DNA of 64,000 bases from an uncultured Clostridia bacterium (GCA_934778215.1 CAKVOE010000002.1:383069-447068), one strand, 5' to 3'; positions 33,564-48,854 are shown, counted from the first letter of the stretch. Numbers and translations are program-made. The notes: generated by a model not told the origin, from the sequence alone.

Positions 33564-34013
33564 TTAAATCTTATTAAAATAAGCAATATTTAAAGTAAAC
33601 AAAGTTTTGGAAGTAATGCGATTATTTGAATTAAATTCATCTAATGACTGCCACTTAAACTCGTTATGTTCAGTTAATTTAATGTCATCATAGTTATTGA
33701 CTTTTACTACAAAGTTGTATTGTCGTGACTTTTTGCCCGAACCAGACAAATAATCAAAATAATTAATATAACTTACGATTTGGGTTACATCTAAGTTGCT
33801 TTCTTCTTTAACTTCTCTAATAAGTGCGTCAAATAGCCCCTCGCCTTTTTCCAATTTGCCACTTGGAATTTCGTCAATTCCTCCCATAAAATCATCAGCT
33901 TTTCTACCTAGAATTAAACATTTGTTTTCGTCATTAAAAATAACTCCTCCAACTACTAATTTTTCAATTCCGTCCTCTTTAGCTTTTTCTATTAAAACAT
34001 TTTCAAATTTCAT
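33564..34013 (-). CDS. NUDIX hydrolase
   Basis: Nudix box SGKLEKGEGLFDALIREVKEESNL; ATG 34013 after GGAG. Confidence 0.75.
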   Translation of the reverse strand: MKFENVLIEKAKEDGIEKLVVGGVIFNDENKCLILGRKADDFMGGIDEIPSGKLEKGEGLFDALIREVKEESNLDVTQIVSYINYFDYLSGSGKKSRQYNFVVKVNNYDDIKLTEHNEFKWQSLDEFNSNNRITSKTLFTLNIAYFNKI

Positions 34014-34281
34014 ATTTATTCTCCTATTAAATTTTGTAGTGGGGACAAAAATAGCAATTATAATTATATGCACTAGTTAACAGGTTTAAGTAAATTCAAG
34101 ACATCTACCCGTTTGGTCAAATTATATCACAAAAAAACTAAATAAAAAAATGATTTTTGATACAAAAGTGTGACACATAATATTGACATTAAAAAATCTT
34201 ATTATAGAATGCAATTAAAAGGTTGAAGAAAAGTAATATTCTTCAACCTTTTGCATTTTAAAGGGAGGTATGATATAATAA

Positions 34282-34596
34282 ATGGAGAAAGGTCCTAGTA
34301 CTTATGCTGAATACTGGACAAGTCCGTATAATGAAGCAAAGCATTTTAACGATCATGGCTGGCAAATGGGGTTTAAAGATGATTTCGTAGGATACTCTGA
34401 AGCTGCTAAAAACTTAGCAATAAGCGAAGCTGATGATGTGCTTGCATTTGTGAGAAAAGATGGTTGTGTGTGCAAGTTTAATACTACTTTAAGACATTTT
34501 ATAGTTATTAATAGAGGTGGTAAAATTATTTCGTTTTATAAGGCTGATATAAAGTATTTTTTAAGCGAATTTAATAAAAAGGGTTTATATAAATAA
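34282..34596 (+). CDS. Small stand-alone toxin-like protein (possibly BECR-fold RNase-like)
   Basis: AKHFNDHGWQMGF...YSEAAKNL...FVRKDG...KFN...FIVINRGGKIISFYK pattern recalls C-terminal nuclease domains of polymorphic toxins; assignment by eye only. Confidence 0.35.
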   Translation: MEKGPSTYAEYWTSPYNEAKHFNDHGWQMGFKDDFVGYSEAAKNLAISEADDVLAFVRKDGCVCKFNTTLRHFIVINRGGKIISFYKADIKYFLSEFNKKGLYK

Positions 34597-34612
34597 AAAG
34601 GAGAATTTTAAA

Positions 34613-34918
34613 ATGAGAAAATGCAGAATTTGTGGATTAGGTAATATTGAATATGACAATGATACTTGTAAAGTATGCGGATGGGAAGCAGATACAATAC
34701 AAGAGGAAAATCCAAATTATGTTGGTGGAGCTAATAATATGACTTACAATCAACAAATGAAGTTTTGGATAGAAAATAAGAATGAAATAACAAAAAGTAA
34801 AGATGATTTCTTTGTCGTCAAACTTTCATTAGAGTATTATAAGAAAAATTTTCAATGTATAAATGAAGAAATTTTAAGAAAAGAAGAAGCTGGACAAATA
34901 GTTCAAGAAATAAAATAG
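34613..34918 (+). CDS. Cysteine-rich CPCC-family protein
   Basis: CRICG...CKVCGWEADTIQEENPNYVGGANNMTYNQ matches the CPCC consensus (C.CC...C.vCgWeDD..Q...P...gGaN). Confidence 0.65.
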   Translation: MRKCRICGLGNIEYDNDTCKVCGWEADTIQEENPNYVGGANNMTYNQQMKFWIENKNEITKSKDDFFVVKLSLEYYKKNFQCINEEILRKEEAGQIVQEIK

Positions 34919-34939
34919 CTAAAGAAGGAAAAAAAGGAA

Positions 34940-35623
34940 GTGTTTATACAAAAAATAGATAAAAATAATAATTATAAATTGCATTACACATGCAAACTGT
35001 GTGGAGCAAAATATGCATATGAAACAGATAAGTGTTTTGTTTGTGGTTGGTTGTTTGATAAGGCTCAAAATGAAAATCCAAATTTAGACATAGGGAAAAA
35101 TATTTTAAGTCTTATTAAATATAAATGTGTATTCTACCTTAACGAAGATAAACTGCTAGGAATGGATCAAGAATATTTACAAGGAGTAGTCAGAGTTTTA
35201 TATGATAAAAATCCGAAATATTACGACAAATATGATATTAGAGAAATAGATAAAATGATTTTATTAAAACACAAGCCTTGCGAAAATCCACCTTATAAGT
35301 GTAAAATGTGTGGATTAGGAGATATTAAACATTGCTTCTATATTTGCGAATATTGTGGATGGGAAGATGATTCCTTACAAAATGATGAGCCAGATTATTT
35401 CGGTGGAGCAAATGAAATGAGTTTAAATCAATACAGGGAGTTTTGGAATAATAATAAAGAAAAAATATTAAAATCTAAAAATAGATGTTTTAAAGCAATA
35501 GACTTGTCTAGAAAATATTACGAAAAACACTTTAAAGAAATCAACGAATCTATATTAGAACAAGAAGAAAGTGAAAGACAAAAATTATATGAATTGGCAA
35601 AAGAATATAAAAAAGAAAACTAA
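34940..35623 (+). CDS. Protein with two CPCC-like zinc-ribbon modules
   Basis: CKLCG...CFVCGWLFDKAQNENP and CKMCG...CEYCGWEDDSLQNDEPDYFGGANEMSLNQ; GTG start uncertain. Confidence 0.6.
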   Translation: MFIQKIDKNNNYKLHYTCKLCGAKYAYETDKCFVCGWLFDKAQNENPNLDIGKNILSLIKYKCVFYLNEDKLLGMDQEYLQGVVRVLYDKNPKYYDKYDIREIDKMILLKHKPCENPPYKCKMCGLGDIKHCFYICEYCGWEDDSLQNDEPDYFGGANEMSLNQYREFWNNNKEKILKSKNRCFKAIDLSRKYYEKHFKEINESILEQEESERQKLYELAKEYKKEN

Positions 35624-35688
35624 TTAAATTAAGAAAAATAAAAGAAGTCATATGATATGGCTTCTTTTGATTTATACAAGGAGATTTT

Positions 35689-36420
35689 ATGAAAGAAAAA
35701 TATGAAGTTGATAACAATTTAATACAAGATAAAACTGTATATGAAAAAGAAAAGTTAGCGAAAAAACTTAAACTAGTTAGAAATGAATTTAAAACAGTTG
35801 GTAAATATGGTATGCCACTAATTAAAAAACAAGAAATTGATTTAGAGAAAATCGATTTATGGAATTACACAAAGACAAAATTAAACGATGTAGATAATAA
35901 AGATAAAACGATTCACTTTTTTACTTATGATTGGAATTTTGAAAGTGTATATGAAAAGCCAGAAGAAGCGCTTGAAAAGCTAGATCAATATTATGCTATT
36001 CTTACACCTGAATTTAGTACTTATAAAGATATGCCTCTTGCTAGACAAATAGATAGCGTGTTCAAAAACCGTTGGTGTGGAGCCTTTTGGCAAAAACAAG
36101 GCGTGTTAGTAATTCCAACAGTTTCTTGGGGGTCTATTCCTTGTATGGAGTTTTGCTTTGATGGGATTGAAAAAGGTTCAGTTGTAGCAGTTTCAACTTA
36201 TACAAGAGAAGATAATAAAGCGGGTTTTATGCTTGGATATAACAAAATGATTGAAATAATTGAGCCGTCAGCGGTAATTTGCTATGGAACACCTTTTGAA
36301 GAAATGAAGGGGAACATAAAAGCAATAGACCCTTTTAACAAGGAAGAACTCATTAAAAAAATGGGTTTTGCTGAATTCACTAGAAAATATTTAGCTGGTG
36401 AATTATATCCAGAGGTATAG
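35689..36420 (+). CDS. DUF4417-like protein
   Basis: IHFFTYDWNFESVYEKPE...LTPEFSTYKDMPLARQIDSVFKNRWCGAFWQKQGVLVIPTVSW resembles the DUF4417 core. Confidence 0.55.
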   Translation: MKEKYEVDNNLIQDKTVYEKEKLAKKLKLVRNEFKTVGKYGMPLIKKQEIDLEKIDLWNYTKTKLNDVDNKDKTIHFFTYDWNFESVYEKPEEALEKLDQYYAILTPEFSTYKDMPLARQIDSVFKNRWCGAFWQKQGVLVIPTVSWGSIPCMEFCFDGIEKGSVVAVSTYTREDNKAGFMLGYNKMIEIIEPSAVICYGTPFEEMKGNIKAIDPFNKEELIKKMGFAEFTRKYLAGELYPEV

Positions 36421-36430
36421 GAGGCATAAA

Positions 36431-37255
36431 GTGAAAAATTTTAAACTGACTATAGACTTGTTGCCGAAAGGCGCTTGGGGTAATGATTTTAGCAAAACCT
36501 TACCTAAAAAGGAGTGGGATATTGTTAGAAATTCTTGTTACGAAAGAGCCAACAATAAATGCGAAATTTGTGGGTTTGAAACAGATGAACTTGATGCTCA
36601 CGAAGTTTGGGATTTTGATATTGAAACAAAAACTCAAACACTTAAAGACATAATTGCTATTTGTAGCAAATGTCATGGGGTTAAACATATTAGAAATTCG
36701 CAAAGGCTAGGCTTTGAAGAAAATGCAAAGAGTCACTTTATGAAAGTAAATAATTGTAGCGAAATGGAATTTGCCGCTCATTTAGTGAAAGCACAAATGG
36801 ATTTTGAAGAAAGAAATAACGTTTATAGGTGGAAAAGAAAGGCAGATTTAAGAAAATTTGGTCTTGAAAACGCCACAATTAAAGAGAAAAATATCCCTTA
36901 CATACAAAATCCTTATGAGCATGTTGATTGGAATGACTATGATTTCATAAAAAATAATCATAATATGCTATTTTATGTAGAAAAGAATGATAATTATTGT
37001 TTGGAACCTAAAATCCTAAGTATTGATATTAACAATTATCAAGGAACGATAAAAATAGTAAGCGATAATGCTAACAAAATTGAATGGTATTTGGATAATA
37101 ATAAGATAAAAACTAAGTATAACACAGTTGGGGAGTTTTCAACCATGGTGAATGTTCAAAATCTTGAAGGAAAGGAATTAGCCTTTGCTTTGTTTGGAGA
37201 AGGGGGTAAAACGCTTTCTAAAACATTTGAACTTTTGCCACAGGAGGTGCTATAA
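36431..37255 (+). CDS. HNH-like zinc-finger nuclease-domain protein
   Basis: CEICGFETDELDAHEVWDFD...ICSKCHGVKH; GTG 36431 lies 6 nt after AGGAGG; stop overlaps next start (TAATG). Confidence 0.5.
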   Translation: MKNFKLTIDLLPKGAWGNDFSKTLPKKEWDIVRNSCYERANNKCEICGFETDELDAHEVWDFDIETKTQTLKDIIAICSKCHGVKHIRNSQRLGFEENAKSHFMKVNNCSEMEFAAHLVKAQMDFEERNNVYRWKRKADLRKFGLENATIKEKNIPYIQNPYEHVDWNDYDFIKNNHNMLFYVEKNDNYCLEPKILSIDINNYQGTIKIVSDNANKIEWYLDNNKIKTKYNTVGEFSTMVNVQNLEGKELAFALFGEGGKTLSKTFELLPQEVL

Positions 37256-37530
37256 TGGGAATGTGTAAACCAAGTGGAGGAATAAGCAAATCTGTGGGTA
37301 GTCTTGGTAGTTTACCACGCAGAGCGACTCCCAACACAAGAATAGATCTATATAATGAAAATGGGAATTTAATTCAACAAAGATGGTATGGTCCAGATGG
37401 TTGGGTAATTCATAATAGAGATTATAATCATGGATTCCCTCGACCACATGACCATTATTGGGTTTGGGATAATAAAAATGGACCTCAAAGAGGTAAAGAA
37501 CACTCAAACCCTGATGATATTTTTTGTTAA
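37255..37530 (+). CDS. Small His/Trp-rich protein, family A (91 aa)
   Basis: NTRIDLYNENGNLIQQRWYGPDGWVIHNRDYNHGFPRPHDHYWVW; paralogue at 38762..39055. Confidence 0.6.
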   Translation: MGMCKPSGGISKSVGSLGSLPRRATPNTRIDLYNENGNLIQQRWYGPDGWVIHNRDYNHGFPRPHDHYWVWDNKNGPQRGKEHSNPDDIFC

Positions 37531-37541
37531 AAGGAGAAAAT

Positions 37542-37982
37542 ATGCACAAAATTAAAAAGTGGGCAAAATGTGATGTTTGTGGCAGAACTTTACTTGCCAG
37601 CAAAACTGGAAACGGAGAGTGTCAATATTGTGGTTGGTATAACAATAGACTCGGAGAAATAAACGAAAACGAAGTAATTTTCCCTAATTTAATATCATTA
37701 AATAAGGCAAAAAGATTATATCAAGAAGGAAAGTCTTTTAGACCAGACTTAAATGATTTTCTTGACGGATTATATTTTTATAGCGAAATGGAGTTTTGGT
37801 ATAAGGGATTAAATTGTTGCTTGTATCTAAGAAGCAACACGAATAGAAAAATCGAATTTGGTTGGAGTCCAGAAAATGTGTATTTCTTTTTAGATAAAGA
37901 AGATTTCATTCAAAATGCAAAAATTGGTGATGAATTTATAAAAGATATTTGGAATAAAGTTGAAAATCCAAAGTATTTATAG
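37542..37982 (+). CDS. Zinc-ribbon (CPCC-related) protein, family B
   Basis: CDVCG...GNGECQYCGW + C-terminal LNDFLDGLYFYSEMEFWY domain; paralogues at 38036 and 39068. Confidence 0.6.
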   Translation: MHKIKKWAKCDVCGRTLLASKTGNGECQYCGWYNNRLGEINENEVIFPNLISLNKAKRLYQEGKSFRPDLNDFLDGLYFYSEMEFWYKGLNCCLYLRSNTNRKIEFGWSPENVYFFLDKEDFIQNAKIGDEFIKDIWNKVENPKYL

Positions 37983-38035
37983 TTTTATTTAATATTCGCT
38001 ATTAATACAAATTAAACGGATAAAATAGGAGTAAA

Positions 38036-38485
38036 ATGAAAGAAAAAAATATACAAGCAAAATGTGATGTTTGTGAAAATGATATTTTAGTTGATGAATA
38101 TGGCAATGGAGATAATTGCCCTATTTGTGGTTGGCGACAATCAGAAGAGTCATTTTATCATAAAGATGTGGCTGGGATAAGAAATATTCCATGTCTTAAC
38201 AATGCGGTTAAACAATATAAAGAAGGCAAGTCTGCTATTTTAGCAAACTTTAGTGACTTTGTTATGGCGTATAAAAATTATGGCGAAGTAGAATTTACCT
38301 TAAATAATACAAGATACGGGGTGTATTTTGATGATAAATATAAAAAAGTTGCCATGGAAAATTTAAGAGATAATGTAACACAATATTTTGAAAGTATTGA
38401 AGATTTTGCAGATAATGCTAAGATTAACGGAGTCAATTTAAAATTTTTATGGCAATTCGTAACAGATACTGATTTTTTACAGTAA
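38036..38485 (+). CDS. Zinc-ribbon (CPCC-related) protein, family B paralogue
   Basis: CDVCE...GNGDNCPICGW + FSDFVMAYKNYGEVEF. Confidence 0.6.
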   Translation: MKEKNIQAKCDVCENDILVDEYGNGDNCPICGWRQSEESFYHKDVAGIRNIPCLNNAVKQYKEGKSAILANFSDFVMAYKNYGEVEFTLNNTRYGVYFDDKYKKVAMENLRDNVTQYFESIEDFADNAKINGVNLKFLWQFVTDTDFLQ

Positions 38486-38581: not shown

Positions 38582-38715
38582 ATTTAGAAAGAATTAGACC
38601 GATAGTTGAGTTTATGACTATCGGTCTTTTTTATGGAACGAATTTTGACAGAAATTGCGTTGTTAAGTGACGACAAAGAATCTTCAAACTTTTGTATTAA
38701 AAGGGGATAAAATGA
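38582..38715 (+). repeat. Cassette-boundary repeat R1 (terminator hairpin + promoter-like leader)
   Basis: AGACCGATAGTTGAGTTTATGACTATCGGTCT hairpin and TTGACAGAAATTGCGTTGTTAAGTGACG...CTTCAAACTTTTGTATTAAAA; copy at 39733..39905. Confidence 0.8.
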
Positions 38716-38761
38716 AAAATGTTAACAAAAAAACGTACAAAACAAAGACGGAGGTGTTATA

Positions 38762-39055
38762 ATGGGAGCAGGAGGAGTTACAAATCGAACAGTAGAACGA
38801 GTAAATGGAAAACGAGGTGATTTGCCAACGAGTGGAGCGAAGCCAAATTCTAGATATGATTTGTATGTAAATGGTGAAAAAGTTCAAAGCAGGTGGTTTG
38901 ATTCAAAAGGTAAAGTTATAAGAAATAGAGATTTTAATCATCAGGACGCTCACAATAATCATGAATTTCCACATGACCATAATTGGAGTTGGGGTAAAGG
39001 ATGTCCTGAGAGAAATCCTGAGAATTTAGAACCCGACTATGATATGTATTATTAA
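38762..39055 (+). CDS. Small His/Trp-rich protein, family A paralogue (97 aa)
   Basis: NSRYDLYVNGEKVQSRWFDSKGKVIRNRDFNHQ...FPHDHNWSW. Preceded by a 16-codon leader ORF (38712..38762) overlapping its ATG. Confidence 0.6.
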   Translation: MGAGGVTNRTVERVNGKRGDLPTSGAKPNSRYDLYVNGEKVQSRWFDSKGKVIRNRDFNHQDAHNNHEFPHDHNWSWGKGCPERNPENLEPDYDMYY

Positions 39056-39067
39056 AAGGAGATAAAG

Positions 39068-39697
39068 ATGACAAAAAAATTAACTGATTATGAAATTGAT
39101 AAACAGATAAAAAAGCAATTATTAGTTAGAAATGAATTTCTATACCATGGCAATTCTATGGGGAAATATAATTTTCCTGTGATAAGAAAACAAAATAGAA
39201 ATGTTTCAGGATTAAATACTAAGGATTTTAAATTTTTTGATTATGATGACCCTTATATAAAAGACCAAATGACAAAATGCTCAATTTGTGGTTCAGTCGC
39301 ATTGCAAGACCAATATGGAAATGGAGAATGTAAACATTGTGGTTGGAAATTTAGTAAAGATGAGGAAATGTTTGAACAAAAATTGGGTATAAGTTATCCA
39401 ATGTTAGTTACTCCAACAACTGCAAGAGAACAATATAAAAAGGGGTTACCTTTTAAAGCAACATTTAAAGAATTTGTAAATGGCTTATATTTTTACAGCG
39501 AAATGCTTTTTGAGTATGATAAAACAACCTATGAAGTTTTTTTAAAAAAAGATTATACCATAGTGTTTTGCTCAAAAGAAATACAACAAGAATATAAAAC
39601 AAGACAAGATTTTGAAAACAATGCTAATATAAATGGAGTTTTGTTAAAAGAATTATGGAATAAAATTGATAAGCCGTCATTTATGTTTTGTGGATAA
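39068..39697 (+). CDS. Zinc-ribbon family B paralogue with N-terminal extension
   Basis: CSICG...GNGECKHCGW + FKEFVNGLYFYSEMLFEY. N-terminus KKQLLVRNEF..GKYNFPVIRKQ resembles the DUF4417 protein N-terminus KKLKLVRNEF..GKYGMPLIKKQ. Confidence 0.6.
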   Translation: MTKKLTDYEIDKQIKKQLLVRNEFLYHGNSMGKYNFPVIRKQNRNVSGLNTKDFKFFDYDDPYIKDQMTKCSICGSVALQDQYGNGECKHCGWKFSKDEEMFEQKLGISYPMLVTPTTAREQYKKGLPFKATFKEFVNGLYFYSEMLFEYDKTTYEVFLKKDYTIVFCSKEIQQEYKTRQDFENNANINGVLLKELWNKIDKPSFMFCG

Positions 39698-39732
39698 AAT
39701 GATTTGACAGCAACCCTCAGCAAACGTACCAG

Positions 39733-39905
39733 ATTTAGAAAGTTTACGAAAGAATTAGACCGATAGTTGAGTTTATGACTGTCGGTCTTTTTAGGCACGC
39801 AAGAAGATTTTTAATCTTCTATTGGAGCGGATTTAGACGGCAATTACGTTGTTAAATGACGATAAAAAATCTTCAAACTTTTGTATTAAAATAGGGGAAA
39901 TGATA
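39733..39905 (+). repeat. Cassette-boundary repeat R2 (copy of R1 with ~35-nt insertion)
   Basis: Same hairpin and leader as 38582..38715, followed only by a 16-codon ORF. Confidence 0.8.
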
Positions 39906-40116
39906 TAATATGGGCGTATTTGATGATTTAATTAAATTGATATTGGCAGATTCAAAATAATATGAAATATTTAGATCTAGTAGAATTAGTAAAAAACCAG
40001 TCTACAAAAAGTTGTGGGAATGCTAAAACACAAACCATTTAGAAAAGATCTTAAGATGTAAATTTATTTGTACAAAATTATTAAAAGTATGTTATACTCT
40101 AATTAGAGGATAAATT

Positions 40117-40953
40117 ATGAAGGTTGTAACTATTTGTGGAAGTATGAAATTTGCAAAGGAAATGCAAACTATTGCAGGCGTATTGGCAATAGAGAACGGC
40201 TGGTGTGTTTTACAATGCGTTTATGATTTAGATTTTGCAAATTTAACAAGCGAAGATTTGAATTTGTTAAAAAATGAACATTTAAAAAGAATAGAACTTT
40301 CAGATTCAATTTACGTTGTAAACATTGGTGGATATATTGGGAATTCGACCAAACTTGAAATTGAGTACGCAAAAAAATTAGGCAAAGAAGTTATCTATCA
40401 CGAATTCAACTTAGTAAGCGAACTAAATAATTATAAACCATTTAATGAAGACGAAAAAGAAAATGTAAAAAAGGTTTTGGACTTTTTGGCAAACAATACA
40501 AATTGTTACGATAGGTCTAATTTAAAAGGTCATGTAACCGCTGGTGGACTTATTGTTGACGGCAGTGGCAATGTATTATTAAATCATCACAAAAAGACAG
40601 GAATGTGGTTTCAGTTTGGTGGTCATAGTGATGGTGATACTAATTGCATCAATGTTGCTCGCAGAGAGATAAGCGAAGAGGCTGGGATTTTTGATTGTAA
40701 ACTTATTTCAAAAAATATTTTTGATGTCGATGTTCAACAAATTGCATATAGTGCGAAGAAAAATGAACCAGAGCATTTTCATTATGATATTAATTTTTTA
40801 TTTTTAGTTAGGGATAAAAACTTTGAAATCTCAAACGAGTCCACTGAGATTAAATGGGTCACTATTGAAGAAGCAAAAAGGCTTATAGATAAAGAAGATA
40901 AAGCCATGCAAAGAATGCTTGCAAAATATGAGTTGTATTGTAAACAAAATTAA
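40117..40953 (+). CDS. Fusion: nucleoside 2-deoxyribosyltransferase-like (DUF4406-like) N-domain + NUDIX hydrolase
   Basis: VVTICGSMKF...DSIYVVNIGGYIGNSTKLEIEYAKKLGK N-domain; Nudix box GGHSDGDTNCINVARREISEEAGI. Confidence 0.55.
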   Translation: MKVVTICGSMKFAKEMQTIAGVLAIENGWCVLQCVYDLDFANLTSEDLNLLKNEHLKRIELSDSIYVVNIGGYIGNSTKLEIEYAKKLGKEVIYHEFNLVSELNNYKPFNEDEKENVKKVLDFLANNTNCYDRSNLKGHVTAGGLIVDGSGNVLLNHHKKTGMWFQFGGHSDGDTNCINVARREISEEAGIFDCKLISKNIFDVDVQQIAYSAKKNEPEHFHYDINFLFLVRDKNFEISNESTEIKWVTIEEAKRLIDKEDKAMQRMLAKYELYCKQN

Positions 40954-41085: not shown

Positions 41086-41139
41086 AAAATCGCCAAAACC
41101 CTATGAAAATAAATGGTTTTAGCGACTTTTATCAGTGTA

Positions 41140-41208
41140 GCTGGTGACGGTAATCGGACCCGTCCCCCACCTTACCAAGGCAGTGCTTTACCTCTAAGCC
41201 ACATCAGC
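41140..41208 (-). tRNA. tRNA-Thr(GGU)-like gene, atypical (possible pseudogene)
   Basis: Manual fold gives acceptor, D and anticodon arms (loop TTGGTAA). But T-loop is TCCGATT, variable region 3 nt, one acceptor mismatch, no CCA, only 69 nt. Confidence 0.45.
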
Positions 41209-41264
41209 GTAGTTTTTAGCTCCATAAATTTGGAGCCTATGAAAATGTAATTTGGGGAACAAAA

Positions 41265-41494
41265 CGCCTTACCAAGGTGGTGCTCTACCACTGAGCCACA
41301 ATATCATAAACCCTTATTTAGGGCAAATTATTTAGTTGTATTTTGGTTAAAACCGAATCTTACCAAGCAAGTGCTCTACCTACTGAGCTACGTTAGCATA
41401 AGTTGTTGCTCCATAAAATTTGGAAATATTAAGTTGTAAATTTTACCCCCAAATACCTTACCAAGGTGGTGCTCTACCGCTGAGCCACACCAGC
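41265..41494 (-). repeat. Three tandem 5' halves of tRNA-Thr(GGU) with ~50-nt hairpin-containing spacers
   Basis: c41265..41305, c41355..41397, c41454..41494 each run from the tRNA 5' end to just past the anticodon loop. Confidence 0.8.
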
Positions 41495-41789
41495 AAATGC
41501 TGTTTTTTGAATGATTTTTGCGGTGAAATTTAGTGGTTAAAAAGTGCTATTTTTGTTTTACCAACACATAACCTAAATTTTGTGAATACACCCCAGGTCC
41601 GCCCATAAATACTAGTCCTTAGGGTTGGATTTTTCTTTTATTTTCAATTTTAATTTTTGATAGTGGGGGTGGGGAGTATGCTTTGGAAATTAGTGTGGGC
41701 TTTTTGCTGGTAATTTTATTAAAATTGAAATGGAATACATAGAAAATATTGCCAAAATTAATAATATTTGATAAATTTTCAAAAAACAC

Positions 41790-41818
41790 TTGATTTTTGA
41801 ATTAAAATTATGTATATT
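41790..41818 (+). promoter_or_regulatory. Sigma-70-type promoter for tRNA-Ser
   Basis: TTGATT-17 nt-TATATT about 35 nt upstream of the tRNA. Confidence 0.55.
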
Positions 41819-41853
41819 AGTTGTGTTGATTGCGTAGAGCAATTAATTAATAT

Positions 41854-41943
41854 GGAGAGATGGCTGAGTGGTCGAAAGCGGCGGTCTTGAAAACCGTTGA
41901 GGGTGCAAGTCCTCCTGGGGTTCGAATCCCTATCTCTCCGCCA
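41854..41943 (+). tRNA. tRNA-Ser (anticodon UGA)
   Basis: GGAGAGA acceptor, CTTGAAA anticodon loop, long variable arm GAGGGTGCAAGTCCTCC, T-arm GGGGTTCGAATCCC, CCA. Confidence 0.9.
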
Positions 41944-43068: not shown

Positions 43069-44568
43069 TTATACATATATTCTAACTTCAACTTCTTTAA
43101 AGTTTGGTATTGTTTTATTTTGTATGTATTGTGGCAATTTAGATGTAAATTCTGCAACAAAAAAGCCCTGATTTTTATCAGGACTTGTTTTTATTGGGCT
43201 ATTAAAAGTTATCTCTATTTTATCTTCAAAAACTTTTATTTCTTGAATAAGATAATCAATTAAAAGTTTAGGTTCAAGTTGCAATGCGTGAATGTAATAT
43301 TCTTTAATATCTTCTTTTGAGAGTTTAAGTATAGTTTTAGATTTTTCAATCATTATTTGTCTTTCTAATTCTTCAATTTGATTTTCAAGGTCTTTCATTC
43401 GTTTGTTTGTTGTATTGTTAACAACTCCTTGTTCAACTGCCTTCATTATATTGTTTAATGTGCTTTCGGCTTGTTTTTTATCCTTTAATAATAAATTTAA
43501 TATTGAATTGCCATTTGATTGAGATTCTTGTACTTTCATTATACCATCTATTATTTTATCCATATATTTTGAAGAAGAAAGTATTTTTATAATGTTATCT
43601 ACAATAAAGTTTTCAAACATTTCTTTTCTTACCATAGATTTTTTGCAACCATTTTTTCGTTTTCTTCCAAGACATTTATAATAGTGTCTCTTGGTGCCAT
43701 TACTCGCTGTTCCACATTCTGCACTAATTGGCATTCCACAATAACCACATTTAAGTTTATGCCTTAATAAATACACAACTTCAGTGCTTCGCTTTCCATA
43801 TTTGTTTAGGTTTATCTTTTGCCTAACATTATCATAAATTTCATTCGGTACTATTGCTGGATACATGTTATTAAAGATTTGTCCGTCAAATCTATAAATT
43901 CCAGAATATTTTTCATTTTTCAAAATGTTGTAAATAGTATTTCTTGCAAAAGGTTTGCCTTTGTTAAAAATTCTTTTTTCGGTCAACAGTAAAATTATAT
44001 CTTTAACATAAGTTCCAATAGAGTATTGTTTGTATATAAATCTTACAACTTCAGCTTGTTCTTCGTTCACTTTTACTTTATGGTTTTCTACATAATATCC
44101 ATAGATAATATTTCCACCAGTAAAATTTCCTTTAAGTCTTGTTTCATTCATCCCACGCTTTACTTTTTGAGCAAGTTCTGCTGAATAATATTCAGCCATT
44201 CCTTCAAGCAAACTTTCAAGTATTATGCCTTCAGGTGTGTCAGGGATATTTTCCATTGCAGAGAGTAGTTTTACGTCATTGTCTTTCAGTATCTTTTTGT
44301 TTTTAGCAGTTTCATATTTGTTCCTACTAAATCTGTCTAGTTTGTAAACAATAACATACTGCCATTCTTTATTTGCAGAATCTTTTATCATTTGTTGAAA
44401 ATCTGGTCTATTATCGTTTGTTCCTGTCATAGCTCTATCTATGTATGTGTTAAGAATAACAAAATTGTTATTCTTCGCATATTGTTCACATACTCTTAAT
44501 TGACCTTCTATGCTTTGTTCGGATTGACTATCTGAACTATATCTTGCATATATTACTGCTGTTTTCAC
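43069..44568 (-). CDS. Large serine recombinase
   Basis: AVIYARYSSDSQ catalytic-Ser motif, recombinase domain, zinc ribbon CGYCG...YYKC, C-terminal coiled coil. Start reassigned to GTG 44568 after AAGGAG. Confidence 0.85.
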   Translation of the reverse strand: MKTAVIYARYSSDSQSEQSIEGQLRVCEQYAKNNNFVILNTYIDRAMTGTNDNRPDFQQMIKDSANKEWQYVIVYKLDRFSRNKYETAKNKKILKDNDVKLLSAMENIPDTPEGIILESLLEGMAEYYSAELAQKVKRGMNETRLKGNFTGGNIIYGYYVENHKVKVNEEQAEVVRFIYKQYSIGTYVKDIILLLTEKRIFNKGKPFARNTIYNILKNEKYSGIYRFDGQIFNNMYPAIVPNEIYDNVRQKINLNKYGKRSTEVVYLLRHKLKCGYCGMPISAECGTASNGTKRHYYKCLGRKRKNGCKKSMVRKEMFENFIVDNIIKILSSSKYMDKIIDGIMKVQESQSNGNSILNLLLKDKKQAESTLNNIMKAVEQGVVNNTTNKRMKDLENQIEELERQIMIEKSKTILKLSKEDIKEYYIHALQLEPKLLIDYLIQEIKVFEDKIEITFNSPIKTSPDKNQGFFVAEFTSKLPQYIQNKTIPNFKEVEVRIYV

Positions 44569-44601
44569 TTTATTTTTTCTCCTTTTATTAAGTTTTATTT
44601 T

Positions 44602-44745
44602 TGTCTTTCGACAGAGCGAAAAGAAACGAAAATGGATTAAAATTCTTTTGTTTGTAATTTTTCTTTTCTTGTCAAGGGTTGTGAAACAATACATTTTACC
44701 CTTGACAAGAAAGAGTTTTCGTTTATGCTCTGTAACCGAAAGACA
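44602..44745. repeat. Nested palindrome between Rep stop and recombinase start
   Basis: Outer ~30-nt arms TGTCTTTCGACAGAGCGAAAAGAAACGAAAA / TTTTCGTTTATGCTCTGTAACCGAAAGACA; inner 11-bp CTTGTCAAGGG / CCCTTGACAAG. Confidence 0.75.
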
Positions 44746-44746
44746 A

Positions 44747-45628
44747 TCAATAAGCTTTGGGTAGTTTATCTATAAGAAATTTATCTTTATTCGGTTGTCC
44801 TAAAACTTCGCCAGTTTCAAAATCTAGGCATTTGAAGTCGTCAAAAAGTAAAATTTTTCTATCTTCTTGACCTATTTTGCAAACAACGTCATCATCTAAA
44901 ATATCTGCAACAAAATATGTTTGTAAGTGCTTTGAATAGATAACTTTTTCACCAGTTTTGCGAATGTATTTCATAATGTAATTAACTGCATCATTAACAC
45001 CAACATTATTGATTATTTCTTTGAAATCGTTCCTACCAAATCTCTCTAAAAAGAATGTGTTTTGATGGGCAATTTGCATTTGGTGTGTTTTAGTGGAGTA
45101 ATCTCTTGTTTCAATAATCTCGCCAACCATTTCAGTAATTACAAATATCCCATGAAAATGTAATCTCTCTAGTTTTGGACTTCGTTCAAACACTCCAATA
45201 TATTTCCAGACTTTTCTATGAGATAGATGTCTTAAACAAGTAAGTAATTTCTTTCTAAATTCTTCTTCGTTTAGTTTGTTGCTGTCATAGGTAAAAGTGC
45301 AAAAGTGAGTCCATTGTTGCAGTCCAATTTTTCTATACAATCTCGTAAGTCTAACTATTTTATTTCTCTTTTCTTTTTCTAAAGTTGCTTTAACAAACTC
45401 TTTCGCTTTTTCTTCATCTTTAATTTCTTCATTTATCTTTTCAATAACTTTTTCAGTTTTCTCTTTCTTTGTTCCTGTTTCAGATTTATATAACTGTTTA
45501 AGTTTTTCTTCGGTTTCATTTTTAACTCGCTTTTTGCTATTCTTTCGTTTCTTCCATATTTGTTTTTCAGGTGGTATTCCAATAAAATGACTACCATCAA
45601 AATATACTTTAGTTTTGGGATAGTCCAT
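44747..45628 (-). CDS. HUH-type rolling-circle replication initiator (Rep)
   Basis: Motif 1 HFCTFTYD, HUH motif RLHFHGIFV, Tyr motif AVNYIMKYIRK. Confidence 0.7.
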   Translation of the reverse strand: MDYPKTKVYFDGSHFIGIPPEKQIWKKRKNSKKRVKNETEEKLKQLYKSETGTKKEKTEKVIEKINEEIKDEEKAKEFVKATLEKEKRNKIVRLTRLYRKIGLQQWTHFCTFTYDSNKLNEEEFRKKLLTCLRHLSHRKVWKYIGVFERSPKLERLHFHGIFVITEMVGEIIETRDYSTKTHQMQIAHQNTFFLERFGRNDFKEIINNVGVNDAVNYIMKYIRKTGEKVIYSKHLQTYFVADILDDDVVCKIGQEDRKILLFDDFKCLDFETGEVLGQPNKDKFLIDKLPKAY

Positions 45629-45743
45629 ATTGCACCTCGCATTTTTTGAACGACATAATCTGATTCAGCATTGCCACCAAAAATTCATTGTCTAGCAAAG
45701 TTAAATCTAATTCGTTTTCAAATTCAATTTTTAGTTTTTGCAT
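45609..45743 (-). CDS. Small ORF (44 aa) overlapping the rep start
   Basis: Strong SD AAGGAG 9 nt before ATG 45743; overlaps rep by 20 nt; no similarity recognised. Confidence 0.35.
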   Translation of the reverse strand: MQKLKIEFENELDLTLLDNEFLVAMLNQIMSFKKCEVQYGLSQN

Positions 45744-46075
45744 AATTTTTAACTCCTTTTTGTAAATTTGGAATTAAAAAGGACATAGAAAAAACCTTGT
45801 TTTTCTACGCCCATAAAATGCAACCACTGGCTTTTAATTTTGGCTAAAAGCAAACCAATAAACTATCTTCTCGGTCTTACCATTTTTGCGTTGTCTTTTT
45901 ATTTCCAGTTTTACTTTAGCACAAGTTATTCACAAAATGTAATGACTTAACTTGTACTTTACCTATACAAAAAACAACTTTTCTTAACATTTACCCAAAC
46001 TAAACTTGTTATTACTTGATATTTCTTAACAAAAAAGAGTATGTATTTTACACACTCTATTTGTTTGTTAGATTA

Positions 46076-46204
46076 TATGCAATATGCTAAATATCTATCT
46101 TTAAATTTTCTTCTGCGTTTGTAAACAATGTCTGTGCTAACTCCTAAAAATTCGGCAATAAGTTTTACTTCAACACCATTGTAATAGTATTCTAAAATTT
46201 GGCT
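46076..46204 (-). pseudogene. C-terminal fragment of a sigma-70 region-4/LuxR-like HTH gene
   Basis: ILEYYYNGVEVKLIAEFLGVSTDIVYKRRRKFKDRYL; bounded upstream by a stop with no start codon. Confidence 0.3.
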
Positions 46205-46284
46205 TTACAATTTGTTAGTTATGTATTTGGAAAATGTCTTTGAAACAACAATATTGAAATTTGAAAACAAACTACAATACAATT

Positions 46285-46350
46285 TGCCGAGTGGTAAAAA
46301 AAAAGAGGTTTTGCGATAAGCCTGCGCGCAAACCTCTTTTTTACTCGGCA
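46285..46350. other. Long GC-rich-loop hairpin (bidirectional terminator-like)
   Basis: TGCCGAGT..AAAAAGAGGTTT-loop-AAACCTCTTTTT..ACTCGGCA. Confidence 0.6.
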
Positions 46351-46438
46351 ATGTTTGTTCAAAAGAAATGTTTTTTTGCTAGTTGTTTTTCTATTTTTGT
46401 AGTTCATTTTGTTTGTATTGTTTAATTGTTTTTATGTT

Positions 46439-46496
46439 CGTGTGCTTGTCTTCGGTGGAGCGTAGCGACACCGACTTGTATCAAGACAAGCACACG
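46439..46496. other. GC-rich compound hairpin
   Basis: CGTGTGCTTGTCT-TCGGTG-GAGCGTAGCGA-CACCGA-...AGACAAGCACACG. Confidence 0.6.
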
Positions 46497-46653
46497 TTTA
46501 AATGCCAATTTAGACTAAAATACTAACTTACGCCTTCAAATACAAAGCTTTAAACTTTAGATTTCTAAAGTTTTCTAAAAAAATCAACATAATTATTTAC
46601 ATTCCTAAATTTTTATGATATAATAAAAATATCTATATTTGGAGGGTCATATT

Positions 46654-46869
46654 TTGATTGTGTATTATAAATTTTATGATTATATCAAAAGACGAAAGAT
46701 TAAAATAAAAGATATAATCAATGAAACAGGAATATCCAGTGCAACACTTGCAAATCTTGGAACAAATAAAAGTGTTACAACCGACACAATTGGTAAATTA
46801 TGTAGTTATTTAAAATGCCAACCTAGTGAAATTATGGAATTTGAAGAAAAAGGAGTAGACAATGGGTAA
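46654..46869 (+). CDS. Small HTH protein, candidate R-M controller (C protein)
   Basis: IKDIINETGISSATLANLGTNKSVTTDTIGKLCSYL HTH; TTG 46654 lies 7 nt after GGAGGG; overlaps methylase start. Confidence 0.6.
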   Translation: MIVYYKFYDYIKRRKIKIKDIINETGISSATLANLGTNKSVTTDTIGKLCSYLKCQPSEIMEFEEKGVDNG

Positions 46870-47860
46870 ATTAAATTATATTGATTTATTTGCAGGTGTT
46901 GGGGGGTTAAGTTTAGGGTTTGATAATGCTGGATTCCAAAATTTATTTGCTGTAGAGTATGATAAAGTGTTTGCTGAAAATTATTCTCTTAATTTTAAAA
47001 ATCATAGAATACTATGTAAGGACATTAAAGAAATAGATGAAAGCGAGATTAGGTCAATAATTGGAGATACTAAAGTGGATATAATTATTGGAGGGCCTCC
47101 ATGCCAAGGGTTCTCAATTGCTGGGAACATAGGAAGAAATTTTATTGATGACCCAAGGAACAACTTATTTAAAGAATTTGTTCGTTTTGTAAAAATTATT
47201 CAACCCAAAATGTTTTTATTAGAAAATGTTGCAGCTATGGAAAAGCATAATAAAGGCAAAACATTAGAAATAATAAAAGAAGAATTTAAAAAATTGGGAT
47301 ATGAAATCAAACATAAAGTTTTGAATAGTAAATTTTACAATGTTCCGCAAGAAAGAAGACGAATTGTTCTAGTTGGAGCAAAAGATAAAAATAATTTTGA
47401 GTTTCCAATTGAAAATAATAAATTTATTAGTATAGAAGAAGCTATCGGAGATTTACCTCCCCTAAAAAGTGGAGAGAAAAGTTTAATTCCAAATCATTCA
47501 GCAATGAATCATTCAAAACAAATGCTTGAAAAAATGCAATACGTTAAAGACGGCGGAGATAGAAATGACATTCCATTAGAATTAAGGCCCAAATCTGGAG
47601 ATGCGAGAAAATATATAAGATATAATAGTAAAAAACCTTCTATATGCATAACAGGAGACATGAGAAAAGTTTTTCACTACAATCAAAATAGAGCATTGAC
47701 AAACAGAGAATTGGCACGAATTCAAACATTCCCAGATAACTTTACTTTTGTTGGGAATAATGGTAAAATACAACAGGCAATTGGGAATGCGGTGCCACCA
47801 AATCTTGCATATGAATTAGCACTAAAAATAAAGGAGGCTTTAAATGGCAAATTATCCTAA
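46862..47860 (+). CDS. DNA (cytosine-5)-methyltransferase
   Basis: Motifs DLFAGVGG (I), GGPPCQGFS (IV), ENV (VI), QERRRIVLVG (VIII), GNAVPP (X). Confidence 0.92.
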   Translation: MGKLNYIDLFAGVGGLSLGFDNAGFQNLFAVEYDKVFAENYSLNFKNHRILCKDIKEIDESEIRSIIGDTKVDIIIGGPPCQGFSIAGNIGRNFIDDPRNNLFKEFVRFVKIIQPKMFLLENVAAMEKHNKGKTLEIIKEEFKKLGYEIKHKVLNSKFYNVPQERRRIVLVGAKDKNNFEFPIENNKFISIEEAIGDLPPLKSGEKSLIPNHSAMNHSKQMLEKMQYVKDGGDRNDIPLELRPKSGDARKYIRYNSKKPSICITGDMRKVFHYNQNRALTNRELARIQTFPDNFTFVGNNGKIQQAIGNAVPPNLAYELALKIKEALNGKLS

Positions 47861-48854
47861 AATTAATTATATCGGAAATAAATCAAAACTAGTTGATTGG
47901 ATTATTTCAAATATGCCTATTAAAACTGGAACTGTTGTTGATTTGTTTTCTGGTGGTTCATCTGTGTCTTATGCACTTAAAAAACAACATTTTTCAGTTA
48001 TTTCTAACGATTGCTTATATAGCAATTATATCTTAAGTAAAGCAATAATAGAAAATTCAAAAGATACTCTAAATAAAGATGTTTTTGATATAAAAATTTC
48101 AGACAATGAAATTTCTAAAAAATACAACGAAATATCTAAATACTTAACAAACATTCTTTACTATGATTATGAAGTAGAAGAATTAGCAAAATTAATAATA
48201 ATATCTGAAAAATTAAAGGATTATCAAAAATCATTATTTCTTGCTCTTATCAGAAGATCAATGATTAGAAAACTTCCATATTCAAGAATGAATGTTCCAT
48301 GGAATCAAATACAAAAATTAAGGGATGAAAAATACAGTTATGAAAAATATGGAAGAAAAAGAGCATATCATAATAAATCTTTTGAAAGTTTAATGATTGC
48401 TGATTTAGAAAATTACAATCAAAGTGTTTTTGATAATACTAAGAATAATAAAAGTTATCACATGGATTCGTATGATTTTATTAAAACACTTAAAAACAAT
48501 GTAGACATAATTTATATGGACCCACCTTATCCCAAAACAATGAATAAATATGGTGAGTTTTATGGAATATATGATAAAATTTTTAACAAAGAAATTAATT
48601 ATATAAATCTATCGCAAAATGAAAAGTTTCTTGATAATTTTGTAAAACTTATTAAAGAATGTGTCCCAAAAACAGATTATATAGTCATAAGTTTGAATAA
48701 TAAAACATCTCCATCTATACAAGAAATTGAACAAGCTATTCAAGCATTTGGAGAAACAAAAATTTTTGAAAAAGAGCACCAATATAAAGTAACTAATAAA
48801 ACAAATAAAAATACAACAATAGAGCAATTACTAATATTGAAGACAAAAAAATAA
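47844..48854 (+). CDS. D12-class (Dam-like) N6-adenine DNA methyltransferase
   Basis: NYIGNKSKLVDWI, DLFSGGSSVS (FxGxG) and IIYMDPPY motifs. Confidence 0.8.
   Translation: MANYPKINYIGNKSKLVDWIISNMPIKTGTVVDLFSGGSSVSYALKKQHFSVISNDCLYSNYILSKAIIENSKDTLNKDVFDIKISDNEISKKYNEISKYLTNILYYDYEVEELAKLIIISEKLKDYQKSLFLALIRRSMIRKLPYSRMNVPWNQIQKLRDEKYSYEKYGRKRAYHNKSFESLMIADLENYNQSVFDNTKNNKSYHMDSYDFIKTLKNNVDIIYMDPPYPKTMNKYGEFYGIYDKIFNKEINYINLSQNEKFLDNFVKLIKECVPKTDYIVISLNNKTSPSIQEIEQAIQAFGETKIFEKEHQYKVTNKTNKNTTIEQLLILKTKK

Follow-up and report, generated by a model that had tools for sequence, protein, structure and literature searches.

What is encoded by a compact island of genes in an uncultured Clostridia bacterium, in which a DUF4417 gene and an HNH-like gene are followed by three small proteins? 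The island lies in a 64,000-nt stretch of DNA (GCA_934778215.1, CAKVOE010000002.1:383069-447068), which was read on one strand and is referred to as the window. A sequence-only reading of the window had described a five-gene operon at 35689-38485 and suggested that it resembles toxin-immunity or phage-exclusion modules. All five co-directional open reading frames (ORFs) are present at these positions, and the stop codon of the HNH-like gene indeed overlaps the start of the 91-aa gene as TAATG. The terminal hairpin is as strong as described, but it is placed at 38596-38627 instead of 38592-38623. A further hairpin (35639-35669) marks the 5' side, so that the five-gene unit has a boundary at either end.

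35639-35669, + strand: hairpin with T-run between CPCC genes and DUF4417; RNAfold -14.2 kcal/mol
35689-36420, + strand: DUF4417 protein, 243 aa; Pfam PF14386 1.2e-52, phrog_940 3.1e-56
36431-37255, + strand: HNH-like protein, 274 aa; likely GTG start behind GGAGG, ORF open from 36398; phrog_5200 6.7e-32
37255-37530, + strand: A1, 91 aa; all-beta, His-rich (His/Trp-rich); putative standalone copy of a toxin domain, candidate toxin
37542-37982, + strand: B1, 146 aa; likely ATG start at 37542 (ORF open from 37524); CPCC ribbon and alpha+beta C-domain; Pfam CPCC 1.3e-5
38036-38485, + strand: B2, 149 aa; CPCC ribbon and C-domain; Pfam CPCC 2e-6, phrog_3711 5e-9
38596-38627, + strand: intrinsic-terminator-like hairpin, 13-bp stem and T-run, about -19.5 kcal/mol; ends the five-gene unit

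In the following, A denotes the family of the small His/Trp-rich protein and B that of the zinc-ribbon proteins; related contigs carry the label L and related proteins the label P. With moderate confidence, we interpret the locus as a stack of toxin-immunity cassettes, which derive from polymorphic toxins and have turned into standalone intracellular modules.

The A family provides the first line of evidence. A1 matched no model in Pfam and NCBIfam (a weak DUF2963 match was disregarded). A search with a profile of A1 and A2, its counterpart in a second module of the window (43% identity, E 7e-17), retrieved 284 close relatives. The best 120 of these are all 89-126 aa long, lack a Pfam domain and are named only 'hypothetical protein'; 69/120 have exactly 97 aa, so that A2 (97 aa) represents the canonical form. 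An exhaustive profile search extended the family to 561 representative proteins, and among the best 150 of them 88 have up to 130 aa, 48 have 131-300 aa and 14 exceed 300 aa. In the long relatives, the closest of which come from other phyla, the domain is located at the extreme C-terminus behind differing delivery domains. For example, it ends RHS proteins (P0174, P0252) and a MafB protein (P0265; Neisseria MafB domain, Pfam 7.9e-68). In a chromosomal 433-aa protein of Listeria monocytogenes it follows an LXG domain (Pfam 2.2e-34) and covers aa 364-430 (3.8e-14). Similarly, in the 676-aa 'toxin' of Paenibacillus phage Fern the A domain (aa 615-678) comes after a PT-TG pre-toxin domain, and hhalign relates A to the C-terminus of this toxin with a probability of 97.6 (E 3.8e-12). 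These matches to RHS, MafB, LXG and phage PT-TG toxins bear out the suspected toxin-immunity resemblance. They suggest that A is a small toxin domain, namely a standalone copy of the C-terminal domain of polymorphic toxins, and we infer from the homology that it is toxic. The sequence-only reading had assigned the role of 'toxin tip' to the nuclease-like HNH gene; this gene is not a toxin tip, and A1, the small protein rich in His and Trp, is the candidate toxin instead.

The family shares the motif G.LP..G.PNS..DLY..G.L.Q.R[WY][YF]..G....[DN].D[YF].H...H.FPH.H.W.W, in which Asp56, His59, His65 and His67 (numbered as in A1) vary little or not at all. In the AlphaFold2 model, A1 is an all-beta protein of six strands (predicted local distance difference test, pLDDT, 93.4), and Foldseek against BFVD returned phage 'minor capsid' and other phage proteins (E ~2e-6, TM 0.7). 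Compared with the sequences of the PDB, the A profile matched only the zinc-binding histidine-triad unit of PhtD, and this match is not significant (E 1.3). Based on the Asp/His cluster and on this weak, non-significant resemblance, the four residues may form a metal site. His-Me finger nucleases, M23/LAS peptidases and other enzymes were considered because of the HxH motif and dropped, as Foldseek gave no match in the PDB below E 0.1.

The second line of evidence concerns the B proteins. Both B1 (25.3 bits) and B2 (27.9 bits) exceed the cut-off (24.5 bits) of Pfam Cys_rich_CPCC (PF14206), and the zinc ligands C10, C13, C28 and C31 as well as W33 are invariant in 31 B sequences. Their C-domain is common to both and matches phrog_3711, with B1 and B2 being only ~33% identical to each other. 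The earlier description of two zinc-ribbon paralogues therefore holds for the shared CPCC ribbon and C-domain, but not for their equivalence, since B2 is the likely partner of A1 and B1 probably an orphan (see below). The 73-aa protein gp27 of phage Fern, which is encoded directly 3' of the Fern toxin, is homologous to the B C-domain (hidden Markov model, HMM, search 5e-9; hhalign probability 94.5, E 7.9e-8), a further match that agrees with a toxin-immunity pair. Judged by this homology and its position, B would be the matching immunity protein of A, and the two proteins are expected to bind each other physically. As the candidate immunity proteins of A-type toxins lack signal peptides, they point to a target in the cytoplasm.

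The CPCC ribbon leads to a solved structure. PDB entries 8EY3 and 8EY4 contain a 'Cys_rich_CPCC domain-containing protein', and the 101-aa CPCC protein of the window (34613-34918) matches it in chain I of 8EY4 with E 1e-6. Chain A of this entry is an E. coli toxin-immunity protein according to PMC13068155; proteins of the CPCC type are able to act in immunity. The Pfam domain of this type is also found in the B proteins, whose own profile match to 8EY4 is weak (E 0.2-0.5). What they have in common with the immunity protein of Fern is the C-terminal domain and not the ribbon.

Other A-type toxins are followed by other small ORFs. Those 3' of the MafB-A and YD-shell-A toxins (L060/L061 4496-4891 and L069 1666-2115) have no Pfam match and are homologous to each other (5e-14); those 3' of the LXG-A toxins (L062 1343-1702 and L075 4193-4579) have no Pfam match either and show a C-terminal likeness by eye. 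A relationship of B to the ORFs downstream of MafB-A, YD-A, RHS-A and LXG-A was sought and none was detectable by hmmsearch or hhalign (probability 0.3), from which it follows that A-type toxins have at least three unrelated immunity families. The MafB/YD-type and LXG-type ORFs probably represent alternative immunity families for the A domain. A further architecture was seen in P0315 and P0320 (346 and 344 aa), in which an unrelated ~190-aa N-terminal domain is followed by an extra zinc ribbon, the CPCC ribbon and the B C-domain, so that DUF4417 is not the sole domain to which the immunity part can be tethered.

To follow the pair beyond the window, A loci were surveyed with one genome per species, and A was found in loci from 55 species. 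Nearly all of these are gut metagenome-assembled Clostridia (Christensenella-like, 'Onthoplasma', Anaerocaecibacter and similar), with a few contigs otherwise labelled, and the window proteins themselves are closest to proteins of metagenome-assembled genomes (MAGs) of Christensenellales and Christensenellaceae. Wherever the neighbours of A could be read, a gene for a B domain lies directly 3' of it (~10-15 nt). The A-B adjacency, which had been set beforehand as a test of the proposal, is thus kept in essentially every locus across the 55 species. Most frequent is a fused form (~37 loci), in which B is the C-terminal part of a ~400-aa DUF4417-CPCC-B protein. A split form (~9 loci) has the order A, B (in some loci a second B) and DUF4417, and a few loci carry A and B without DUF4417 (e.g. 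L035, L052). The HNH-containing form with the order DUF4417, HNH-like, A and B, to which the window belongs, recurs in the unrelated contigs L001/L002, L008 and L063-L068. Tandem B genes follow a single A in L039 and L050; decayed copies were found in L042, L057 and L059, and in L008 the HNH-like gene is split into two ORFs. DUF4417 is fused to or adjoins B in nearly all A loci. The DUF4417-like gene of the operon had been recognized correctly, as its Pfam match confirms, but it had been missed that DUF4417 is an integral and often fused partner of B.

No other gene is conserved in the flanks of the loci from the 55 species; since only A, B and DUF4417 are conserved, the module appears as an autonomous, mobile unit. 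Within ~6 kb of A, no large-protein family recurs in these loci, and no secretion or delivery genes (type V, VI and VII secretion systems, PVC, phage head) recur in the flanks, which were searched instead of whole genomes. Around the island of the window, the genes scanned encode hydrolases, NUDIX proteins, a surface protein, methylases and a recombinase. Both components are under purifying selection, with a median ratio of nonsynonymous to synonymous substitutions (dN/dS) that amounts to 0.155 in A and to 0.113 in the DUF4417-B fusion. Related loci are located in conflict islands beside Hachiman (HamA and helicase), large helicases and small toxin-like pairs. The island of L063-L068, for instance, encodes a 982-aa CvpA-like membrane protein, Hachiman (HamA and helicase) and large helicases of the DUF4011 family, and contains further small toxin-like genes that stand alone, with two weak DUF6883 matches, one followed by a DUF4926-containing protein and the other by a 76-aa ORF.

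None of the components was matched to a characterized system, in line with the sequence-only reading, which had recognized none. With PADLOC-DB v2 (E <0.01), no defense model matched nine window proteins (B3 left out) or the fusion P0286, and no known toxin-antitoxin (TA) family is among the Pfam and NCBIfam matches of the locus proteins. The statement that secretion and delivery domains are absent held up as well: no delivery domain was found in the operon, and a scan of the ten locus proteins for hydrophobic signal-peptide or transmembrane (TM) segments found none. A blastn comparison of the 5.7-kb region with phages gave one short match of 68% and nothing more.

Comparison of the loci divides A and B into types, and each A type is paired with its own B type.

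A1-type: window A1 and L001, 75% identical; paired B2-type: window B2 and L001, 60%
A2-type: window A2 versus L005 and L008, 84-87%; paired B3-type: window B3 versus the same loci, 79-80%
A3-type: L066 and L008, 97% identical to each other and 44-51% to A1; paired B1-type: 93-94% to window B1

In L001, an A1-type gene is directly followed by a B2-type gene. In the window, B1 is inserted between A1 and B2 and has no cognate A. On these grounds, B2 is the likely cognate immunity protein of A1. The DNA identity between the window and L066 amounts to ~80% in the DUF4417 and HNH-like genes, drops to ~45-53% across A and rises to 93-96% across B1. This mosaic pattern suggests for B1 the status of an orphan immunity gene, presumably acquired by recombination, whose A3-type toxin is missing from the window.

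The sequence-only reading had overlooked that the five-gene unit is only part of a larger island. Ten closely spaced + strand genes at 34.2-40.0 kb form three units, which are divided by four strong hairpins. Downstream of the five-gene unit lies a second A-B module (38762-39697).

38762-39055, + strand: A2, 97 aa; 82-87% identical to A genes of other species
39068-39697, + strand: B3, 209 aa; first ~42-60 aa of DUF4417, zinc ribbon, B C-domain

Compared with the fusions of L004 and L005, B3 has lost the DUF4417 core in-frame, with the joint RKQN|RNVSG, and the same deletion form is present in P0271 from another MAG (83% identical). Other end-points were found in P0273/L007, P0283 and P0296; besides that of B3, at least three exist (228, 268 and 288 aa). 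The core was thus deleted in-frame at least four separate times with differing end-points, and all deletion forms retain the initial 40-80 residues together with the complete B part. A and B are both intact in the two deletion loci with readable neighbours (the window and L007). That DUF4417 was lost repeatedly whereas B was kept is consistent with an immunity part that is indispensable while A is present.

As for DUF4417 itself, the window protein matches PF14386 with 178.6 bits (cut-off 28.9 bits) over profile positions 2-177 of 183, and its invariant residues comprise HFF..D, (S/T)P[DE]FS, Q, R-W and VIPT. The domain is present in 492 phage records and, where the annotation was read, stands just upstream of the terminase small subunit (TerS) gene. 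This is the case in Dorea phage DO134P1 and, according to a published table, in Streptococcus phage A25; in Mycobacterium phage Qobbit, gp1 is DUF4417, gp4 an HNH protein and gp5 TerS. The sequence-only reading had named homologues mainly in phage replication modules with known roles among the findings that would speak against it. DUF4417 is indeed located beside phage terminase genes, where no established role is attached to it, and this position does not contradict the reading. In the literature, DUF4417 is mentioned as a phage-enriched fusion partner of ParB-CTPase folds; beyond this mention we found no characterization of DUF4417, and CPCC is likewise uncharacterized.

In the model of the fusion P0286 (pLDDT 90.4), an alpha/beta DUF4417 domain is followed by a zinc ribbon and an alpha+beta domain of one helix and four strands. 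Foldseek found no significant relative of this model in the PDB, and sequence comparison of DUF4417 and the HNH-like protein with the PDB gave nothing. The match that recurs at the top for P0286 (residues 1-215) is tRNA-guanine transglycosylase (TGT), which is not significant (best E 0.11, probability 0.4-0.8). DpdA is a TGT-family DNA transglycosylase and DpdB is ParB-like, which would echo both the TGT-like match and the ParB fusions of DUF4417. By analogy, a DpdA-like base-exchange or glycosylase activity of DUF4417 on DNA is no more than a lead.

The N-terminal domain of the HNH-like protein shows the pattern CxxC...H...CxxCH, with both Cys pairs and the His residues of 'AHEVW' and 'CHGVKH' present. 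Its residues 3-134 share 40-44% identity with annotated phage HNH genes (tblastn), and with 15.4 bits it stays below the cut-off of Pfam HNH (PF01844, 21.4 bits). No convincing match was found for the C-terminal ~140 aa. A conserved DUF4417-HNH pair of the same families in phages was considered and rejected, since the neighbour in the Dorea phage is unrelated and gp4 of the mycobacteriophage has only generic HNH similarity.

Upstream of the five-gene unit lies the remaining unit of the island (34282-35623), which had been overlooked together with the A2-B3 module.

34216-34253, + strand: terminator-like hairpin, RNAfold -18 kcal/mol; carries the first leader copy, 5' of the X104 unit
34282-34596, + strand: X104, 104 aa; candidate small toxin of a separate cassette
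34613-34918, + strand: CPCC protein, 101 aa; Pfam CPCC 3.4e-8; likely immunity protein of the X104 cassette
34940-35623, + strand: double-CPCC protein, 227 aa; Pfam CPCC 4.8e-15 in two stretches

X104 had no match in Pfam, NCBIfam, the PDB or the phage collection. In L063, the corresponding place 5' of DUF4417 is taken by a 106-aa homologue of X104 with a CPCC gene behind it, and the unit has the appearance of a third toxin/immunity cassette.

A leader common to the three units comprises a hairpin, the sequence TCTTCAAnCTTTTGyATT, a Shine-Dalgarno sequence and TATAAT. The first copy, 5' of the X104 unit, reads TCTTCAAcCTTTTGCATT ... GGAGGT ... TATAAT. The second and third leaders carry the direct repeats D1-D3, and copies of family D1, to which the first leader belongs, lie at 34235, 38676 and 39865. 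No leader RNA family was found with Rfam, which detected four tRNAs in the window.

38634-38761, + strand: second leader copy with repeats D1-D3; includes a 16-codon upstream ORF (uORF, 38712-38762)
39730-39960, + strand: third leader copy (leader 39730-39912), followed only by the 16-codon ORF MGVFDDLIKLILADSK at 39910-39960
39757-39788, + strand: hairpin repeating that at 38596-38627; -18.3 kcal/mol

The third leader copy looks like an empty or decayed cassette slot. Within the second, the uORF encodes the peptide MKNVNKKTYKTKTEVL behind its own Shine-Dalgarno sequence and ends in a TAATG junction with A2. Similar uORFs of 16-17 codons were seen at 8/57 A starts, beyond the window in L007, L018, L021, L023, L041, L050 and L053. 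The uORF end EVL matches the end QEVL of the HNH-like protein, whose gene fills the same position in the HNH-containing sub-type; the uORF may serve as a leader for translational coupling or may have remained from the 3' end of the HNH gene.

At the TAATG junction the region around the A start reads GGAGGTGnTATAATG, and the start motif GGAGGTGnTATAATGGG occurs in the window at 37241-37257 and 38748-38764 and is conserved at the A starts of L004-L058. The element TGnTATAAT (at least 5/6 matches) with the start codon embedded (TATAATG) was found at 49/57 A starts, compared with 4/412 control ORFs. It mostly stands directly after a near-perfect Shine-Dalgarno sequence, GGAGGTG, and a -35-like hexamer at a distance of 16-18 nt is present at 27/57 A starts. 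The element could form a very strong ribosome-binding site (RBS) with an extended Shine-Dalgarno sequence and an AT-rich spacer; alternatively, it could be a promoter yielding transcripts of the immunity gene without the toxin. The N-terminal sequence MG(A/S)GG of A is conserved with synonymous variation.

How could such a stack work? A1, and A2 downstream, would be an all-beta, His/Asp-rich toxin domain with a core of ~65 residues, which B keeps in check and which attacks a target in the cytoplasm once B is lost or titrated. The C-terminal alpha+beta domain of B would bind and neutralize A, and its N-terminal CPCC ribbon would be an accessory domain of the type present in a solved toxin-immunity complex. 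Each A type would have its own B type (A1-B2 and A2-B3), with B1 belonging to another A type and introduced via recombination. DUF4417, accompanied by the HNH-like protein in one sub-type and of a type associated with phage packaging, is genetically locked to the pair and would act as sensor, trigger or second activity, being dispensable for neutralization. Since A has its own strong RBS and no export or delivery domain, and B appears cytoplasmic, an intracellular module resembling TA or abortive infection (Abi) systems is most likely; this mode of action and the role of DUF4417 are our deductions.

Several observations weigh against this interpretation. The fold of A is a simple beta-hairpin meander without a significantly similar solved structure or known enzyme (best Foldseek match in the PDB E 0.13, with generic beta-hairpin domains and Rhs shells on top), so that no activity can be assigned. 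In P0209, P0235 and P0219, a Tox-WTIP membrane tail, which is pore-forming, comes after an A-like domain; the A domain of two RHS relatives lies behind a TM segment, and in some proteins glycine-zipper segments also precede it. In those long relatives, the membrane segment might be the lethal part and A an accessory head. B3 falls below the Pfam CPCC threshold and has no Pfam match, yet all four Cys residues align. The module proteins matched no PADLOC model, and the weak TGT match is the sole structural lead to the role of DUF4417. Finally, an orphan B1 is expected for toxins that are passed between cells and awkward for a purely intracellular toxin.

A more specific version of the intracellular module is that A and DUF4417-CPCC-B form a new phage-responsive TA (Abi) family, in which an immunity domain tethered to DUF4417 would hold a toxin domain taken over from secreted polymorphic toxins. 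DUF4417, which phages themselves carry beside their terminase genes, would as sensor or decoy free the toxin at the time of phage packaging, possibly with the embedded TGnTATAAT giving rise to transcripts lacking the toxin. We regard this version as rather unlikely, although not negligible. CapRel, a fused sensor-antitoxin design, resembles the DUF4417-B fusion by analogy.

The main rival to standalone intracellular modules holds that A is an interbacterial toxin, exported or delivered via a route outside the module, for instance as secretion-system cargo or in phage-like particles, and that the B genes including B1 protect from the cell's own or a neighbour's toxins. The A domain is used by LXG toxins of the type VII secretion system and by MafB, RHS and phage-borne toxins; DUF4417 and HNH are neighbours of the packaging type, and MuF-type 'minor capsid' proteins have the same fold. 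Moreover, export by an unlinked route would explain the orphan B1 more naturally, as its DNA is 93-96% identical to the B gene of another lineage and its toxin is missing here, and the tandem B genes after a single A in L039 and L050 also fit. However, A carries no signal peptide and no trafficking domain such as LXG, WXG or PT, its 120 closest relatives (89-126 aa) stand alone throughout, and the flanks of the 55 loci contain no recurring secretion genes. Intracellular TA modules, too, have orphan antitoxins, the 'anti-addiction' genes. Altogether, export is unlikely, and the remaining alternatives are less likely still.

According to one of these, A1 and A2 are silent orphan cassettes that serve as a recombination reservoir for a full-length toxin gene elsewhere. 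Standalone toxin cassettes accompanied by immunity genes are typical of polymorphic toxin loci (Zhang et al. 2012, PMC3482391), the leader with its hairpin element is shared in three copies, and A is swapped between conserved flanks. A silent cassette is nevertheless hard to reconcile with the conserved ATG within TGnTATAAT at 49/57 A starts, mostly after GGAGGTG, or with the retention of MG(A/S)GG under synonymous variation and a dN/dS of 0.155. In addition, no large-protein family occurs repeatedly within ~6 kb of A and the closest long relatives are in other phyla, which leaves the reservoir quite improbable.

We are similarly doubtful that A is a non-toxic, metal-binding (histidine-triad-like) subunit of an enzyme or DNA-processing complex with DUF4417, B and the HNH-like protein that derives from phage packaging. 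Co-inheritance of A, B and DUF4417, the fusion of B to DUF4417, the weak PhtD resemblance (E 1.3) of a protein without recognizable enzyme fold and the position of phage DUF4417 beside HNH and terminase genes are all compatible with a complex. Yet the A domain forms the end of toxins from at least four delivery families, with a small immunity-like ORF behind each of them; the DUF4417 core was repeatedly lost where A and B stay, and in L035 and L052 only A and B are present. Specificity classes of A and B and an orphan B would also be unexpected for enzyme subunits. A decaying, functionless prophage remnant, in which a packaging module was fused by deletion to a MuF-type toxin tip, would agree with DUF4417 and HNH genes adjoining packaging genes in phages, with the A fold in phage minor capsid proteins, with the decayed copies in L042, L057 and L059 and with the split HNH-like gene in L008, but it is highly improbable for a module that is conserved in 55 species in unrelated contexts under strong purifying selection and whose DUF4417-CPCC-B fusion is a derived, maintained architecture.

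Returning to toxin-immunity cassettes as standalone intracellular modules, the locus can be compared with known systems. It shares with polymorphic toxin systems (Zhang, Aravind et al. 2012) the homology of the A domain, an immunity gene directly downstream, the co-variation of types, cassette swaps between conserved flanks and orphan immunity genes. In contrast to them, the toxin is free-standing (91-97 aa) with its own RBS and lacks trafficking, repeat and pre-toxin domains, no secretion system is linked, and the immunity domain is mostly fused to DUF4417. The only annotated pair found with an A domain followed by a protein with the B C-domain is Fern gp26 (phrog_18811) and gp27 (phrog_3711); here, the phage toxin is long and the phage immunity protein has neither CPCC ribbon nor DUF4417. 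This pair is located in the lysogeny/moron region of a temperate phage, and neither protein has been characterized experimentally (PMC6070908). As in type II TA and Abi systems, two small cytoplasmic genes with linked translation make up the module, which is autonomous and occurs in variable or defense islands; the adjacency of the genes, their common transcription-unit boundaries and the cytoplasmic location agree with a type II TA module, and the neutralizer is kept whenever the toxin is kept and is tethered to a phage-related domain. It differs from them in that the toxin gene comes first, no DNA-binding antitoxin domain was recognized, and the toxin stems from secreted polymorphic toxins.

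Two linked families without a Pfam or NCBIfam model are thereby described, a small His-rich candidate toxin domain and an alpha+beta candidate immunity domain. They place a domain of polymorphic toxins in a new setting, namely a free-standing module in at least 55 species of abundant, little-studied Clostridia of the human and animal gut. For DUF4417, a widespread phage domain, they provide a first genetic context, in which it is fused to and repeatedly deleted from an immunity domain. If the module is phage-responsive, it would represent a new defense architecture with a new toxin activity to be found; if it is a mere TA-like addiction cassette, it would still illustrate cleanly, in a natural setting, how toxin and immunity types co-vary, orphan immunity genes are captured and domains are lost.

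The surroundings of the island show further features. NUDIX hydrolase genes lie on either side of it, at 33564-34073 (- strand) and 40117-40953 (+ strand), and the downstream one has an extra N-terminal domain of ~130 aa without a Pfam match. Just downstream of the island, tRNA-Thr (- strand) and tRNA-Ser (+ strand) genes are located at 41139-41943, and the region 43069-48854 encodes a large serine recombinase, a Rep-like protein and Dcm- and Dam-type methyltransferases. These genes probably mark an integrated mobile element.

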